Shown one piece after another: positions 5,558 through 13,815 of a stretch of DNA of 64,000 nt (position 1 is its first letter; each line of letters starts with the position of its first letter). The translations under genes and the position numbers were made by a program. The stretch comes from an uncultured Candidatus Melainabacteria bacterium (GTDB lineage Bacteria > Cyanobacteriota > Vampirovibrionia > Gastranaerophilales > Gastranaerophilaceae): positions 5,337-69,336 of the forward strand of contig CAKUUC010000010.1 in the NCBI GenBank assembly GCA_934692625.1, read 5' to 3'. The notes beneath the pieces are model-generated. The model searched no databases. It was not told where the DNA came from and was given only the letters and a program-made list of their open reading frames with translations.

Positions 5558-6542
5558 TTTTTACTCTCCTTCTAAATTTTATTTTTATCCCTAAGATTGT
5601 TAAAATCTTATGTGTTCCATCGTCTGCATTTCGTATTGAGAAAATTGTTTTAAAAATACGTTTACTTAAATATAGGTTTTTATCTTTGATAAAATTTTTA
5701 ATATCTGGATTATATTTTTTCATTTGATATATTTTGATTATTTCATTTAGGGTCAATATATCTGCTATTCCGTTATAATGTTCATTTAATCTACTTAAAG
5801 AATAGTAATTAAGTTTATCCAAGGAATTTTGTTTTGCCATTCGCATATCATCTGATATGCCAGATAACAAATCATTTAACTTTTGTTTTGTCCAAGTTAC
5901 TTTGTTATGACCACATCGATATCCGTAAGTAATTTTATCTATAGCGTAAAAATATCTAGCAGTAATCATTGCCTTAACAAAGAATGGTGGGTCTTGAAAT
6001 CTTTTATAATTTGGATAATAAATATTATTTCTAATTAAAAATTCTCTGTTATATATAAATCTATGATAGCCGTAGTCAAATTGATAATCTTTGTAGCAAA
6101 TAATTTGATTGCTATCAAATAAATATCCACTTAATGTATTTGTATAGTTTTGAGTTATTTGTGGATTAGTATTGGTGAAGCATGCAAATTCACCACCACA
6201 AATTAGAACGTGGTTTTCTTGTGCATTGACATAAAGACTTTCAAGAATATCTTGTGTTGGATAAATATCATCAGGATCTATAAAACAAACAAATTCTCCA
6301 CTTGCTTTGTCTATACCAACGTTACGAGTTTTTCCTACCCCTTCATTCTCTTTATCAATCAAGACAATTCGGTTATCTTTTTGGGCATATTCTTTTAGGA
6401 TTTCAAGTGAATTGTCTGTGGAGCCGTCGTTTATACAAATTATTTCAATATCTCGCAAAGTCTGATTAATTACGCTGTCCAAACACTCCCTCAAATATTT
6501 CTCAACGTTATAAACAGGTATGATTACGCTAACCTTTGGCAT
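5544..6542 (-). CDS. Family 2 glycosyltransferase
   Basis: MPKVSVIIPVYNVEKYLRECLDSVINQTL...INDGSTD, DPDD. The start is moved to the internal ATG at 6542, which follows a GGAAAGGA RBS. The stop overlaps the next gene's start by 14 nt. Confidence 0.85.
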   Translation of the reverse strand: MPKVSVIIPVYNVEKYLRECLDSVINQTLRDIEIICINDGSTDNSLEILKEYAQKDNRIVLIDKENEGVGKTRNVGIDKASGEFVCFIDPDDIYPTQDILESLYVNAQENHVLICGGEFACFTNTNPQITQNYTNTLSGYLFDSNQIICYKDYQFDYGYHRFIYNREFLIRNNIYYPNYKRFQDPPFFVKAMITARYFYAIDKITYGYRCGHNKVTWTKQKLNDLLSGISDDMRMAKQNSLDKLNYYSLSRLNEHYNGIADILTLNEIIKIYQMKKYNPDIKNFIKDKNLYLSKRIFKTIFSIRNADDGTHKILTILGIKIKFRRRVKNAEG

Positions 6543-10819: not shown

Positions 10820-12289
10820 CTATAGCGCAACTTCGTTTAGCAAGGCTGAATGTTCGTTTATCAAAGGCAATTCAATAATGAAAGTGTTTTTGTTTCCGCT
10901 GTTATCTAACATAATTTTACCTTCGTGAATTTCAACGATTTTTCTGCAAAAATACAGTCCAAGTCCTACACCACTATTATTTCCAAGATTATCGCCACAA
11001 ACATATTTATCAAAAATATTTGCTTTCAATGTATCTGATATTTTTGCGCTTTCGTTTTGAAAACTAAATCTGTAACATTTGTCGGTTCTTTCGATTGTGA
11101 CGTTTACAACACTGTTGTCAAATGCATAGTTTACTGCATTGTTCAACATATTGGCAAATACTCGGCGCAATTGCATTTCATCACCGTAAATGAAATGTTC
11201 GCAATCTTTCAGTTTTGAATTGATTTTTATTGTCACTCCTTTTGTTTTGCCCAAGTAGTGCACTTCTTTTACGCATTTTTCGATTAAATATAATACGTCA
11301 AAATTCGAAAATTTAAGTTTGATAATTCCGCTATAATCCTTACAAGTTTTTAGTAATGTACAAAGCATATCGCGCATATATTTCGAAGATTCGATAATGA
11401 GTTCCATTATTTCCTGATGACCTTCATCAATTTTTCCGTAATATTCTTTGTACAACATTTCCAGTGAACTAATTTGTGCTTGTAGAGGATTTTTCAAATC
11501 GTGAGTTAAAGTTGCTAAAAATAGGTCACGTTGTTTTTCTAAATGTTTTTCCTTGTCAATATTTTTCGCAATTGAAACAAGTCCGTTAATCTCGTTTTTA
11601 TCAGTAATAATTGGCGCTTTGCTGATTTTATACCAGTGTAATTTTCCGTCTTTATCTATTGCTGCCTTTTCTTTCTTCAGTGGCTTTTTATTTTCCAAAA
11701 CATAATTGTCTTCATTTGCAACTTCTTGCTCTGCTTTTTCCATATCAATGATGATATTTTCAGAATATGTGTCAACTCCGTTAAAAACAAAATTTTTAGC
11801 ATTATCACTAGCAACAATGAGGTTTCGGTCTTTATCTTTCATATAAACTAACAATGGCAAGGTTTCCAAAAGGGTGTTCAATTGGTAGTTTTTCTCAATC
11901 AATCTTGCTTTTAGGTTCTCTTCTTTTGTTACATCAGATGATACAGTCAATAATCCTTCAAGTTTTCTGTTTTGAATAATTGGTGTAGTTGTTTGTTTAA
12001 TTATTTTGTTAATTCCCTCGTGGCGGAAAACATAACTGCGAGTTTCTAAGGTTTCGATAACTCTTTTAGAGTTTTCCATAATTATATCAACACAACTATC
12101 ACCTTTTAAAACTTTTGTTATATGGCTATTCGTGATTGACTTTGCCGTTTCATTGTCAAAATTCATCAACCTTAGAAATGCACGATTGTAAGCAACATAG
12201 TTAAAATTCAAATCTTTAACGGTTACTATATCTTCACAATACTCTAAAATTGCGTTTAATAAATATTCTTTACTCTTTAAATCAATCAT
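10820..12289 (-). CDS. Cytoplasmic PAS-domain sensor histidine kinase (no adjacent response regulator)
   Basis: H-box LATLTHDLKNPL, N box NMLNNAVNYA, G boxes GVGLGLYFCRKIV. Has N-terminal PAS-like repeats and no TM segment. Confidence 0.85.
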   Translation of the reverse strand: MIDLKSKEYLLNAILEYCEDIVTVKDLNFNYVAYNRAFLRLMNFDNETAKSITNSHITKVLKGDSCVDIIMENSKRVIETLETRSYVFRHEGINKIIKQTTTPIIQNRKLEGLLTVSSDVTKEENLKARLIEKNYQLNTLLETLPLLVYMKDKDRNLIVASDNAKNFVFNGVDTYSENIIIDMEKAEQEVANEDNYVLENKKPLKKEKAAIDKDGKLHWYKISKAPIITDKNEINGLVSIAKNIDKEKHLEKQRDLFLATLTHDLKNPLQAQISSLEMLYKEYYGKIDEGHQEIMELIIESSKYMRDMLCTLLKTCKDYSGIIKLKFSNFDVLYLIEKCVKEVHYLGKTKGVTIKINSKLKDCEHFIYGDEMQLRRVFANMLNNAVNYAFDNSVVNVTIERTDKCYRFSFQNESAKISDTLKANIFDKYVCGDNLGNNSGVGLGLYFCRKIVEIHEGKIMLDNSGNKNTFIIELPLINEHSALLNEVAL

Positions 12290-12389: not shown

Positions 12390-12668
12390 TTAACTGTTTT
12401 TTAGAAGTTTTTCCAAAATATTTGTCATTTCTTCAAGTTTCTCATCTTTTTCTTTTTCAGAACCAGATTCAAAAGATTTTTTTACACAATGTGAAAAATG
12501 CGCTTTTAAAATTTCCAAGTTTACTCGTTTTAACAATGATTGACTAGCCAAAACTTGGGTGCTTATATCGATGCAATATCTGTCATCTTCAACCATTTTT
12601 ATCAAACCTTCTATTTGCCCCTTGACGGTTTTTAATAGTCTTATAATTTTTGATTTGTCTGCTTGCAT
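12390..12668 (-). CDS. csoR: CsoR-family metal-sensing transcriptional repressor
   Basis: 92 aa with LKTVKGQIEGLIKMVEDDRYC. The C-x24-H-x3-C ligand pattern (YCID ... AHFSHC) fits the Cu(I)-sensing x-C-H-C fingerprint. AAGGAG RBS. Confidence 0.85.
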   Translation of the reverse strand: MQADKSKIIRLLKTVKGQIEGLIKMVEDDRYCIDISTQVLASQSLLKRVNLEILKAHFSHCVKKSFESGSEKEKDEKLEEMTNILEKLLKNS

Positions 12669-12689
12669 TTATTTCTCCTTAAATATTGC

Positions 12690-12717
12690 AATCCCTGATA
12701 GTATAATATCAGGGATT
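12690..12717 (-). promoter_or_regulatory. Intercistronic 11-bp inverted repeat between the Cys-rich gene and csoR
   Basis: AATCCCTGATA-GTATAA-TATCAGGGATT. There is no T-run after it on the coding strand, so it is more likely an RNA processing/attenuation hairpin or protein site than a full terminator. Confidence 0.4.
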
Positions 12718-12732
12718 GAATGTTTTGCCAAT

Positions 12733-12993
12733 TTATTTTGCACAATTGCACTGTTTTTTTCTAAAAATTCTAAATTTTTTAGTTTTGCAATTGCAGGTGT
12801 CATTTTTGCATTTTAGACAATTGCAATTTTCATCACAGTTATATTCTTGTCCGTTTTGACAACCGCAATCACATGTTTTTGCGCAGTTGCAAGTTACTTT
12901 TTCGCAGCCACAAACACAATCACAAGCAAATACGGAATTTGTTGTTAATAATAATGCACCTAGCATTAATAGTCCTAATGTTAATTTCTTCAT
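12733..12993 (-). CDS. Secreted Cys-rich (metallothionein-like) small protein
   Basis: 86 aa. Signal peptide MKKLTLGLLMLGALLLTTNSVFA, then 17 Cys in about 63 residues arranged as CxC/CxCxC motifs. AAGGAGG RBS. Directly upstream of csoR on the same strand. Confidence 0.7.
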   Translation of the reverse strand: MKKLTLGLLMLGALLLTTNSVFACDCVCGCEKVTCNCAKTCDCGCQNGQEYNCDENCNCLKCKNDTCNCKTKKFRIFRKKQCNCAK

Positions 12994-13016
12994 AGTTGCC
13001 TCCTTATATTCTTTTG

Positions 13017-13033
13017 ATACCCGTACGGGGTAT
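13017..13033. promoter_or_regulatory. Candidate CsoR operator
   Basis: The GC-rich pseudo-palindrome ATACCC-GTAC-GGGGTAT lies immediately downstream of the -10 box of the Cys-rich gene promoter. Confidence 0.55.
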
Positions 13034-13039
13034 GGGTAT

Positions 13040-13068
13040 ATAATAAAGTGGGATTTTTATTTTGTCAA
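13040..13068 (-). promoter_or_regulatory. Sigma-70-type promoter of the Cys-rich gene/csoR operon
   Basis: On the minus strand: TTGACA (13063-13068), a 17-nt spacer, then TATTAT (13040-13045). Confidence 0.55.
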
Positions 13069-13101
13069 GTGGTGATGTTAAAAATTTTGTATATAAACAA
13101 T

Positions 13102-13136
13102 AAAAATAGCCAATAGAAGTGCTTTTGGCTATTTTT
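13102..13136 (-). terminator. Rho-independent terminator of the 92-aa gene
   Basis: AAAAATAGCCAA / TTGGCTATTTTT stem with an 11-nt loop and T-runs on both strands. Confidence 0.6.
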
Positions 13137-13166: not shown

Positions 13167-13445
13167 TTAACGAAGAATTTTATCAAGAATACCGCTTGTT
13201 GAAATACATATTTTTTTATTCAAATCTTCAATCATCAAGTTTTTCTTCAAATTCGCATCGTAAGCTCTTTTCCAATTTTTAACAATAGTTTTTGGGTTGT
13301 TTGAAGAATCGCCTGATTCTGCGGTTAATCTGCGATAGAAAACGTCTTCACTTTTCTTGACTCCACGAGAAGCACATCTTCTAACGTCCATTCTATCTAG
13401 CGTTGCTCCGATAACGGAATTCAATCTGGGGTATATTTTTAACAT
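13167..13445 (-). CDS. Hypothetical protein (92 aa)
   Basis: GAGGAA RBS 8 nt upstream of the ATG and its own terminator downstream. No recognisable motif. Confidence 0.5.
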   Translation of the reverse strand: MLKIYPRLNSVIGATLDRMDVRRCASRGVKKSEDVFYRRLTAESGDSSNNPKTIVKNWKRAYDANLKKNLMIEDLNKKICISTSGILDKILR

Positions 13446-13517
13446 AATTTTTTCCTCAATAAATGTATATCATTTCTTCTTATACAAAAAATTATAAATA
13501 AAAACATACGTCTGTCA

Positions 13518-13815
13518 ATGAGAAATTTGTCCAAAATTTTAATAGTTGAAGATGAAGAACATATTAACCTCTATTGATGATACTGTTGAAATTCGTGTAA
13601 AGGATTATGGTATCGGGATTGCAAAAGAATACCATGAAAAGATTTTTGAAAAATTCTATAGAATTGATAAGGCGCGAAGTCGTGCTAATGGCGGTTCCGG
13701 ATTGGGACTTGCTATTGTCAAAGATATTGTAGAATTGCATAATGGTAAAATTTCTATAGAGAGTGAACAAGGCAAAGGTGCAGAATTTATAATTAAATTG
13801 CCCGATCAATCTTGA
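13518..13815 (+). pseudogene. Remnant of a two-component system: response-regulator N-terminus fused by deletion to a histidine-kinase C-terminus
   Basis: ATG at 13518 encodes MRNLSKILIVEDEEHINLY-stop (receiver start). A shifted frame from 13546 encodes only the G1/G2 end of an HK (EIRVKDYGIGI...FYRID...GGSGLGLAIVK...GKGAEFIIKLP). Confidence 0.6.

Follow-up and report, generated by a model that had tools for sequence, protein, structure and literature searches.

What does a copper-type repressor control in a bacterium whose genome holds no recognisable copper pump? The question is raised by a two-gene operon in a 64,000-nucleotide stretch of DNA (the window) from an uncultured Candidatus Melainabacteria bacterium of the family Gastranaerophilaceae (assembly GCA_934692625.1, contig CAKUUC010000010.1). 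Textbook bacterial copper defence consists of a sensor, a chaperone and a P-type ATPase, and the known bacterial metallothioneins SmtA and MymT are cytosolic. In the operon of the window, a gene for a small Cys-rich protein with a predicted signal peptide is followed by a csoR gene. The reading that we favour, with a probability of about 0.6, is that the operon is a Cu(I)-derepressed system whose first product would act as a periplasmic metallothionein-like copper sink. The core of this reading, in which a repressor of the CsoR type acts on an operator at the promoter and an exported CxC-rich protein is the sole co-transcribed cargo, had been proposed in an initial annotation of the same DNA, and both the gene pair and the operator have turned out to be conserved. 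Unless a contig or locus is named, coordinates are positions of the window, and all features of the operon lie on the minus strand.

The repressor and the predicted exported Cys-rich protein

The csoR product matches PF02583 (Trns_repr_metal) over profile positions 1-78 of 78 (E=6e-26), and its nearest NCBIfam model is the copper repressor RicR, well ahead of RcnR and FrmR. It has seven matches among proteins of solved structure; the top five are Cu(I) CsoRs without exception (4M1P at 2e-17, followed by 4ADZ, 2HH7, 7MQ1 and 7MQ3), and the weakest is the nickel sensor InrS. The x-C-H-C fingerprint is present, C32-x24-H57-x3-C61 being aligned with the ligands of 4M1P, 4ADZ and 2HH7, so that the initial identification of the second gene as a CsoR with C-x24-H-x3-C spacing is borne out by both the domain match and the ligand alignment. 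In this fingerprint the first Cys belongs to helix 2, and the His and the second Cys, four residues apart, to helix 2'. The second-shell pair is present as well: Y31 lies within RYCIDI and E80 is aligned with the Glu of Geobacillus thermodenitrificans CsoR. In the CsoRs of Mycobacterium tuberculosis and Bacillus subtilis, this Tyr, next to the ligand Cys, and this Glu, on helix 3, couple Cu(I) binding to DNA release. The N-terminal His of the RcnR/InrS kind is absent from the protein of the window. Q38 and R10-L-L-K13 occupy the places of the Gln and the RLxR motif that were discussed as DNA-binding in Streptomyces lividans CsoR (PMC3902906). These features support the assignment of the regulator to the Cu(I)-sensing branch of the CsoR/RcnR family, of which it is the only member encoded in the whole genome.

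The first gene encodes a pre-protein of 86 amino acids, whose mature part contains 17 Cys in 63 residues (27%), with nine CxC motifs and neither CC, His nor Met. Size, signal peptide and Cys content thus agree with the initial description. The signal peptide (MKKLTLG...) has no twin arginine, and all 17 Cys of the pre-protein fall after the ...NSVFA cleavage point. Only nine residues of the mature protein are hydrophobic, four of them in the C-terminal FRIF. AlphaFold2, run with an alignment of 12 sequences, returned practically no secondary structure (pLDDT 42.9, pTM 0.17), and with such very low confidence a fold search on the model would be meaningless. The traits of the metallothionein class are all found in this protein: it is small, rich in Cys arranged as CxC, poor in aromatic or hydrophobic residues, and predicted to lack a stable apo fold.

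Neither Pfam nor NCBIfam contains a match for the 86-residue protein at E<=0.1, and four of its relatives, compared with Pfam at E<=1, gave no credible match but only two sub-threshold chance matches. Judged by these searches, the protein lies outside every described metallothionein family (SmtA/BmtA, MymT, Pfam MT). Its place as sole co-transcribed effector had been regarded as unusual, and the protein is not unique: four related clusters were found by a word-indexed search of 5.8 billion proteins, and when 1.84 billion representatives were searched in full with an HMMER profile, the unnamed family grew to at least 46 clusters at 50% identity. With the exception of a few of the weakest matches, its members share a signal peptide followed by modules of the type C-x-K-x-C-D-C-G-C-Q-x-G-E-x-C-x-C, and a C-terminal KKF-x-F-(K/R)-K-x-(K)-C-x-C motif is usual.

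An alignment of nine close orthologues has 13 invariant Cys columns and seven in which single substitutions occur (C/Y, C/R, C/G, C/S, C/T), so that the totals are 16, 17 or 18 Cys, odd ones included. The modules can also be amplified, reaching 59 Cys in about 200 residues at two loci. In these (L050:987-1589 and L057:972-1622) a module of about 30 residues (CEKCKCAKCDCKNCKCKKCDCKCDECAKAN) is repeated in tandem, with an operator before the gene and csoR after it. Odd and drifting Cys counts, the absence of a hydrophobic core and module amplification point to a metallothionein rather than to a disulfide-knotted domain.

The sequence VFA followed by C might suggest a lipoprotein. The lipobox [LVI][ASTVI][GAS]C is not matched, the window having V-F-A-C with an atypical Phe at -2, and the residue at +1 after the A-x-A-like cleavage site varies within the family (C, N, Q, G, K, Y, S or E; cleavage contexts in relatives include FAN then E, FAQ then C, and FAG then E). 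The lipoprotein reading was ruled out because the Cys at +1 is not conserved across the family. Since the A-x-A site is kept and the following residue is variable, cleavage by signal peptidase I, without a lipid anchor, is predicted.

In its own genome, the 86-residue protein is encoded by the sole convincing Cys-rich gene. Longer exported Cys-rich paralogues are found at other loci (L008-L010 and L012-L014; gene start at 6001 in each locus and at 3148 in L013). They have 121-168 residues, 22-31 Cys and an acidic C-terminus (...GCPLEDIIETEEK), and they are accompanied neither by an adjoining csoR nor by a CsoR operator. Their upstream regions have in common TTGTAA-N8-TTACAA inside ATTGTAACATGTATTTTACAAAATGTAAAG, which may be the site of another regulator.

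Promoter, operator and intercistronic hairpin

The initial annotation had recognised a TTGACA-17-TATTAT promoter and, next to it, a pseudo-palindrome resembling CsoR operators; both are present at the positions given in Table 1. The sequence of the operator is ATACCCCGTACGGGTAT in the coding orientation; on the plus strand, the form given in the initial annotation, it is ATACCCGTACGGGGTAT. Its arms have 6 bp and its centre 5 nt. Positions 13032-13018 are TAC-CCCGTACGG-GTA, in accordance with the published rule for type-2 CsoR sites, TAC-X9-GTA around G/C tracts, for which the streptomycete consensus is ATATACCCCTNAGGGGTATAT; S. lividans CsoR is also known to bind in a modular manner at sites with additional TAC/GTA repeats (PMC3902906). 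In one relative (L002) the operator is ATACCCCGTAGGGGTATAT, nearly identical to this consensus.

Promoter-like hexamer pairs are not significant by number in the AT-rich (32% GC) DNA of the window, with 10 observed and 8.8 expected, and weight was therefore put on the comparison across loci. The comparison set comprised 20 loci, called class I, in which an exported Cys-rich gene is followed by an orthologous csoR. A clear TAC-N9-GT(A/G) site with G/C tracts comes directly after the -10 hexamer in 17 of them, and a degenerate site occupies the same place in two; at L024 the distance between site and gene is greater, the site being placed about 95 nt further upstream. TTGACA is found in 18 of the 20 upstream regions. 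The -35 hexamer, the -10 hexamer and the operator hold their positions in 17 loci, with flanks, spacers and leaders that are otherwise unalignable. This phylogenetic footprint supports a CsoR-type operator that is predicted to lie on the sigma-70 promoter. ATACCC-N3-7-GGGTRT occurs three times in the 1.94-Mb genome, and the copy in the window is the only one located in a promoter. The perfect ATACCCCAGGGGTAT that forms a second copy (C4:16438-16452) falls within a 635-residue coding frame and was taken as chance.

The operon is insulated by the predicted intrinsic terminator of the upstream gene, whose stem is followed by UUUUUAUUGUUU.

The two open reading frames (ORFs) are separated by a spacer of 64 nt, which holds a hairpin and the ribosome-binding site of csoR. 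An 11-bp inverted repeat had previously been noted here, at 12690-12717; its presence between the cistrons stands, and its description is corrected to that of an RNA hairpin with 12 pairs. A strong hairpin (z -3 to -7) occupies the same place in 14 of the 20 loci, with unrelated stem sequences, and is followed by a U-tract in L024, L037, L064, L065, L069 and L070. At five loci the hairpin is absent or the spacer is next to nil; the start of csoR was not placed in L061. The possibility that the inverted repeat is a second protein operator was ruled out, given that the relatives keep a hairpin with unrelated stems, several of them with U-tracts. Since the structure is conserved and the sequence is not, the hairpin is read as an RNA element, a putative leaky terminator or protector of the mRNA 3' end, rather than as a protein-binding site. 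Such an element would raise the message of the first gene above that of csoR. Internal promoter-like hexamers are found in the closest relatives only (L001 and L004) and are not conserved more widely; tentatively, this candidate promoter might supply basal csoR expression.

Table 1. Features of the operon and its upstream boundary, in window coordinates
Feature	Position	Strand	Details
Intrinsic terminator of upstream gene	13101..13133	-	Stem AAUAGCCAA/UUGGCUAUU, U-run next; -15.2 kcal/mol, z -4.78
-35 hexamer TTGACA	13063..13068	-	With the -10 hexamer, 11/12 consensus match
-10 hexamer TATTAT	13040..13045	-	Spacer from -35, 17 nt
Additional ATACCC half-site	13034..13039	-	Abuts -10; ATACCY kept in relatives
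CsoR-type operator ATACCCCGTACGGGTAT	13017..13033	.	TAC-N9-GTA with G/C tracts; spans predicted +1 to +17
Ribosome-binding site AAGGAGG	12999..13005	-	ATG 5 nt further; AGGAG-type sites kept in relatives
First ORF, 86-aa pre-protein	12733..12993	-	MKKLTLGLLMLGALLLTTNSVFA then CDCVCGC...TKKFRIFRKKQCNCAK
Predicted Sec-type signal peptide	12925..12993	-	MKK, 15-residue Leu-rich core, SVFA then C
Mature 63-aa Cys-rich protein and stop codon	12733..12924	-	C-terminal motif TKKFRIFRKKQCNCAK
Weak internal promoter candidate for csoR	12703..12731	-	TTGGCA-17-TATTAT with TG, 10/12; -10 in hairpin loop
Intercistronic RNA hairpin	12689..12718	-	12 pairs, 6-nt loop; -18 kcal/mol, z -3.55
csoR ribosome-binding site AAGGAG	12675..12680	-	
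csoR, 92 aa	12390..12668	-	Y31, C32, H57, C61, E80, Q38, R10-L-L-K13

Copper genes of the host and of its order

The assembly comprises 1.94 Mb in 22 contigs, with 33% GC and 97.8% completeness. No HMA domain was detected in it by a search that found the domain in 13 of 14 reference genomes; therefore, the genome holds neither CopZ nor a classical CopA, which sharpens the earlier remark that these are the proteins encoded by typical CsoR regulons. The single P-type ATPase (C13:34349-36274, minus strand) carries the CPC, N-x7-K and D-x-G-x7-N motifs and scores 529 bits with the Cd/Zn model TIGR01512 versus 411 bits with the copper model TIGR01511. On these scores it is a pump of the Zn/Cd type (P1B-2) without an HMA domain. 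A divergent gene upstream of the ATPase was judged by eye to be ArsR/SmtB-like, and the promoter region shared by both contains TTGAA-N6-TTCAA. Neither a multicopper oxidase nor a haem-copper oxidase (COX1) was found in the genome. Since the copper pump and both kinds of oxidase are absent, copper is apparently a mere poison for this host, and the operon would be its sole recognisable answer to the metal.

A census of 201 genomes of the order was carried out, from which all CsoR-family loci found were fetched (L019-L073). HMA domains are present in 26 of these genomes, which mostly belong to other families, and in none of the 26 genomes sampled from the genus of the window. PF02583 is present in 52 genomes, and the loci fall into four classes. 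In class I (14 genomes), a CsoR at least 56% identical to that of the window has an exported Cys-rich gene directly upstream, with cargoes ranging from 84 to 220 residues and from 17 to 59 Cys; an HMA domain is present in only one of the 14 genomes. The linkage is also observed at metagenome loci, and the genomic neighbourhoods differ. A homology search for CxC-rich exported proteins beside csoR, which had been suggested with the initial annotation, thus recovers the pair in varied contexts.

In class II (about 20 genomes), the CsoR is about 40-46% identical and contains RYCPDI...H-x3-C. The gene directly upstream encodes a cytosolic peptide of 37-41 residues with 10-11 Cys (MAKCSNPHCKCVNCKCGDNCTC...), and the upstream regions carry TACCCC...GGGTA sites. 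Examples are L033:1833-1952, L027:2785-2904, L035:2855-2974 and L040:1391-1510, with about 16 further loci. The mini-peptide MAKCSNPHCKCVNCKCGDNCTCTEDKCNCPPECNELPKK has no signal peptide, and its CsoR reads RYCPDI...THLEEC. There is no Pfam match for this mini-peptide; its ORF is mostly uncalled in databases, and its relatives amount to three unnamed clusters. A mobile element is suggested by the near-identity of the class II operon in several genera.

The two remaining classes are of a different kind. In class III the regulator is RcnR-like, with His3, and a CDF efflux gene (PF01545) comes next. At the loci of this class in the genus of the window (L019-L023, L025 and L026), the RcnR-like proteins have an N-terminal M-x-H and C/H/H-C ligands. 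The pair is probably a Ni/Co or Zn sensor and exporter, and it is absent from the genome of the window itself. Class IV comprises Cys-less CsoR-like proteins encoded upstream of a 451-residue gene product (L039, L042, L043, L049, L060 and L062). These proteins have lost the metal-ligand Cys/His and retain one stray Cys at most; the 451-residue gene is conserved directly downstream, and the class represents a non-metal branch of the CsoR family.

None of the 201 genomes has a CsoR-family gene beside copA or copZ. In this order, copper-type CsoRs therefore appear to be mostly wired to small Cys-rich proteins, in cytosolic or exported versions.

Several relatives that carry the operon are metagenome-assembled genomes that bear the label Candidatus Melainabacteria and come from rumen and animal guts. 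Others (L003, L004 and L005), with 59-94% protein identity, are labelled Acutalibacteraceae, Bacteroidaceae and Methanomethylophilaceae. These labels are probably wrong, and L004 is placed in the genus of the window, with synteny common to both.

Two neighbours of the operon in the window complete the picture. A gene for a PAS-PAS-HisKA-HATPase histidine kinase (10820-12289, minus strand) begins at a distance of 100 nt from csoR, and no terminator is predicted in the gap. Its inclusion in the operon was ruled out: it follows csoR in the closest relatives only (L001 and L071) and does not do so in L002, L005 and others. Co-transcription with csoR by read-through is possible, yet the kinase stays outside the conserved unit. 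On the other side, a perfect sigma-70 consensus (TTGACA-16-TATAAT, 12/12; 13491-13518, minus strand) precedes a 92-residue ORF (13167-13445), for which no family match was found.

Mechanism, alternatives and meaning

The data can be arranged in the following model. Without copper, CsoR tetramers would occupy the operator at the transcript start and block the strong sigma-70 promoter. Cytoplasmic Cu(I) bound at C32/H57/C61 would release CsoR from DNA, allowing the transcription of the operon. The pre-protein would then be made in quantity, exported via Sec and cut by signal peptidase I, yielding a 63-residue, CxC-rich protein with 27% Cys that is predicted to be intrinsically unfolded. In the anoxic periplasm its thiolate clusters may bind Cu(I), reducing the flux of copper into a cell without a pump, and the basic and aromatic tail (KKFRIFRKK-CNC) may tether the protein to anionic envelope surfaces. 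The hairpin would let a fraction of transcripts pass into csoR, keeping a high ratio of sponge to repressor, and this read-through would restore CsoR and close an autoregulatory loop. Because CopA, CopZ and multicopper oxidase are missing from the genome, the putative sink is the only copper defence that can be recognised in it.

Several points weigh against this model. A cytoplasmic sensor combined with an extracytoplasmic sink is an indirect logic, useless for copper that is already inside the cell. No operator was found in the 140 nt searched upstream at L003, the sole such case among the 20 class I loci. The AlphaFold2 result depends on 12 sequences only. InrS, with a CsoR-like site of the x-C-H-C type, senses Ni (PMC3320959). 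Finally, as the main caveat, the genome encodes a VKOR-thioredoxin fusion, a predicted periplasmic disulfide oxidase of the cyanobacterial type that could oxidise the exported Cys and abolish thiolate binding.

The last point leads to the alternative that survives best, although we consider it unlikely: the exported protein would be a disulfide-rich secreted or envelope peptide, with a structural, adhesive or antimicrobial function, whose Cys are oxidised by VKOR-thioredoxin, and control by CsoR would merely tie it to copper or redox stress. Sec-exported Cys-rich proteins of diderm bacteria are usually disulfide-bonded, and the longer paralogues exist without an adjoining csoR. The fusion itself is encoded outside the window (C4:117951-119057, minus strand; L074 and L075), in one 421-residue frame that holds VKOR and thioredoxin-like domains as in cyanobacterial DsbAB. 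It was unexpected in a presumed obligate fermenter. An argument for free thiols based on the absence of periplasmic disulfide machinery was dropped on account of it. However, it is uncertain how much oxidising power VKOR can draw on, given that the Gastranaerophilales are described as diderm-type obligate fermenters without respiration, with genomes of 1.8-2.3 Mb (PMC4040986). Disulfide-knot folds keep their Cys in pairs, which fits poorly with totals of 16, 17 and 18, and both a hydrophobic core and a confident fold are absent. Moreover, tandem modules with up to 59 Cys resemble metallothioneins, in which capacity is scaled. A further argument is the tight linkage of the gene to a sensor and an operator of the Cu(I) type.

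It is likewise improbable that the inducer or ligand is something other than copper, such as Ni, Zn, Cd, Ag, Hg, reactive sulfur or electrophiles. The CsoR/RcnR family includes Ni/Co and formaldehyde sensors as well as persulfide sensors (bioRxiv 10.1101/2021.07.25.453692), and the case of InrS speaks for the same possibility, as does the frequent promiscuity of metallothioneins. On the other hand, the combination of x-C-H-C with a Tyr/Glu second shell is typical of Cu(I) CsoRs, and the N-terminal His is missing. CstR-type persulfide sensors, for their part, do not have the His of this site. The genus possesses a separate RcnR-like (His3) gene paired with a CDF efflux protein, Zn and Cd are already covered in this genome by the ATPase with its ArsR/SmtB-type neighbour, and a CxC protein that offers only Cys and no His is suited to Cu(I).

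Very improbable is a third alternative, in which the pre-protein is a sacrificial carrier that loads Cu(I) in the cytoplasm and leaves through Sec in place of an efflux pump: the sensor is cytoplasmic, no copper exporter is recognisable in the genome, the Cys-rich cargo is the sole co-regulated gene, and the related operons of a cytosolic mini-metallothionein and CsoR speak for intracellular copper buffering in the lineage, but chains pass through Sec unfolded, a chain cross-linked by multi-Cys Cu(I) clusters would be expected to jam the translocon or to lose its clusters there, and we know of no precedent for such a carrier.

The Cu(I)-derepressed sink can be compared with systems already described. 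The closest known regulatory logic is that of RicR, the CsoR paralogue of M. tuberculosis, which represses the Cu(I) metallothionein MymT (PMC3944814, PMC7558416). Both systems combine a Cu(I)-type repressor of the CsoR family, a G/C-tract palindrome on the promoter and a small Cys-rich protein. However, MymT is a cytosolic protein of 4.9 kDa, without a signal peptide and without detectable similarity to the protein of the window; RicR governs several genes at scattered sites, and copper ATPases are present in M. tuberculosis as well. In the window, the cargo is predicted to be exported via Sec and is co-transcribed with the repressor, in a genome without CopA and CopZ.

The CsoR-copZA systems of B. 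subtilis, G. thermodenitrificans (4M1P) and S. lividans (4ADZ) share with the window the fold family, the C-H-C site, the Tyr/Glu second shell and a type-2 TAC-N9-GTA operator overlapping the promoter, but the genes regulated there are those of a chaperone and an ATPase, which is not so in the window. Of the exported copper stores known, Csp1 of methanotrophs comes closest; it is a pre-folded, Tat-exported four-helix bundle tetramer that stores copper for an enzyme (PMC7558416). Like Csp1, the protein of the window is predicted to hold many Cu(I) by Cys outside the cytoplasm. In contrast, it has a Sec signal without RR, no helices or fold are predicted for it, and its host has no recognisable copper enzyme; with neither the four-helix bundle nor the twin-arginine signal, it does not belong to the Csp1 family. 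With metallothioneins such as SmtA/BmtA and the fungal Cu-thioneins it shares small size, more than 25% Cys, CxC motifs, few hydrophobic residues, the lack of an apo fold and the scaling of capacity through module duplication. It differs from them in its signal peptide and in the conserved basic C-terminal motif KKF-x-F-K/R-K-x-C-x-C.

In the literature searched, neither a naturally exported bacterial metallothionein nor copper handling in Melainabacteria is described. Metallothioneins under the control of a CsoR-family repressor were known already; new here are the predicted export of the cargo, the unnamed family to which it belongs and a host genome without a copper pump.

As a broader and more tentative proposal, which we put somewhat below even odds, gut Gastranaerophilaceae may handle copper without a pump, CsoR-derepressed, Sec-exported metallothioneins replacing CopA/CopZ as the sole defence. 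In this animal-gut lineage most genomes contain no HMA-domain protein, and the copper-type sensors are wired to small Cys-rich proteins instead. If the exported type does bind copper, it would constitute a new protein family and the first case of exported metallothioneins among bacteria, and copper would be stopped at the envelope by a strategy that needs no pump. The operon would also offer a simple module of sensor, operator and cargo for studying anaerobes under dietary copper, with which livestock feed is heavily supplemented, and a compact natural scaffold for the capture of metals at the cell surface.

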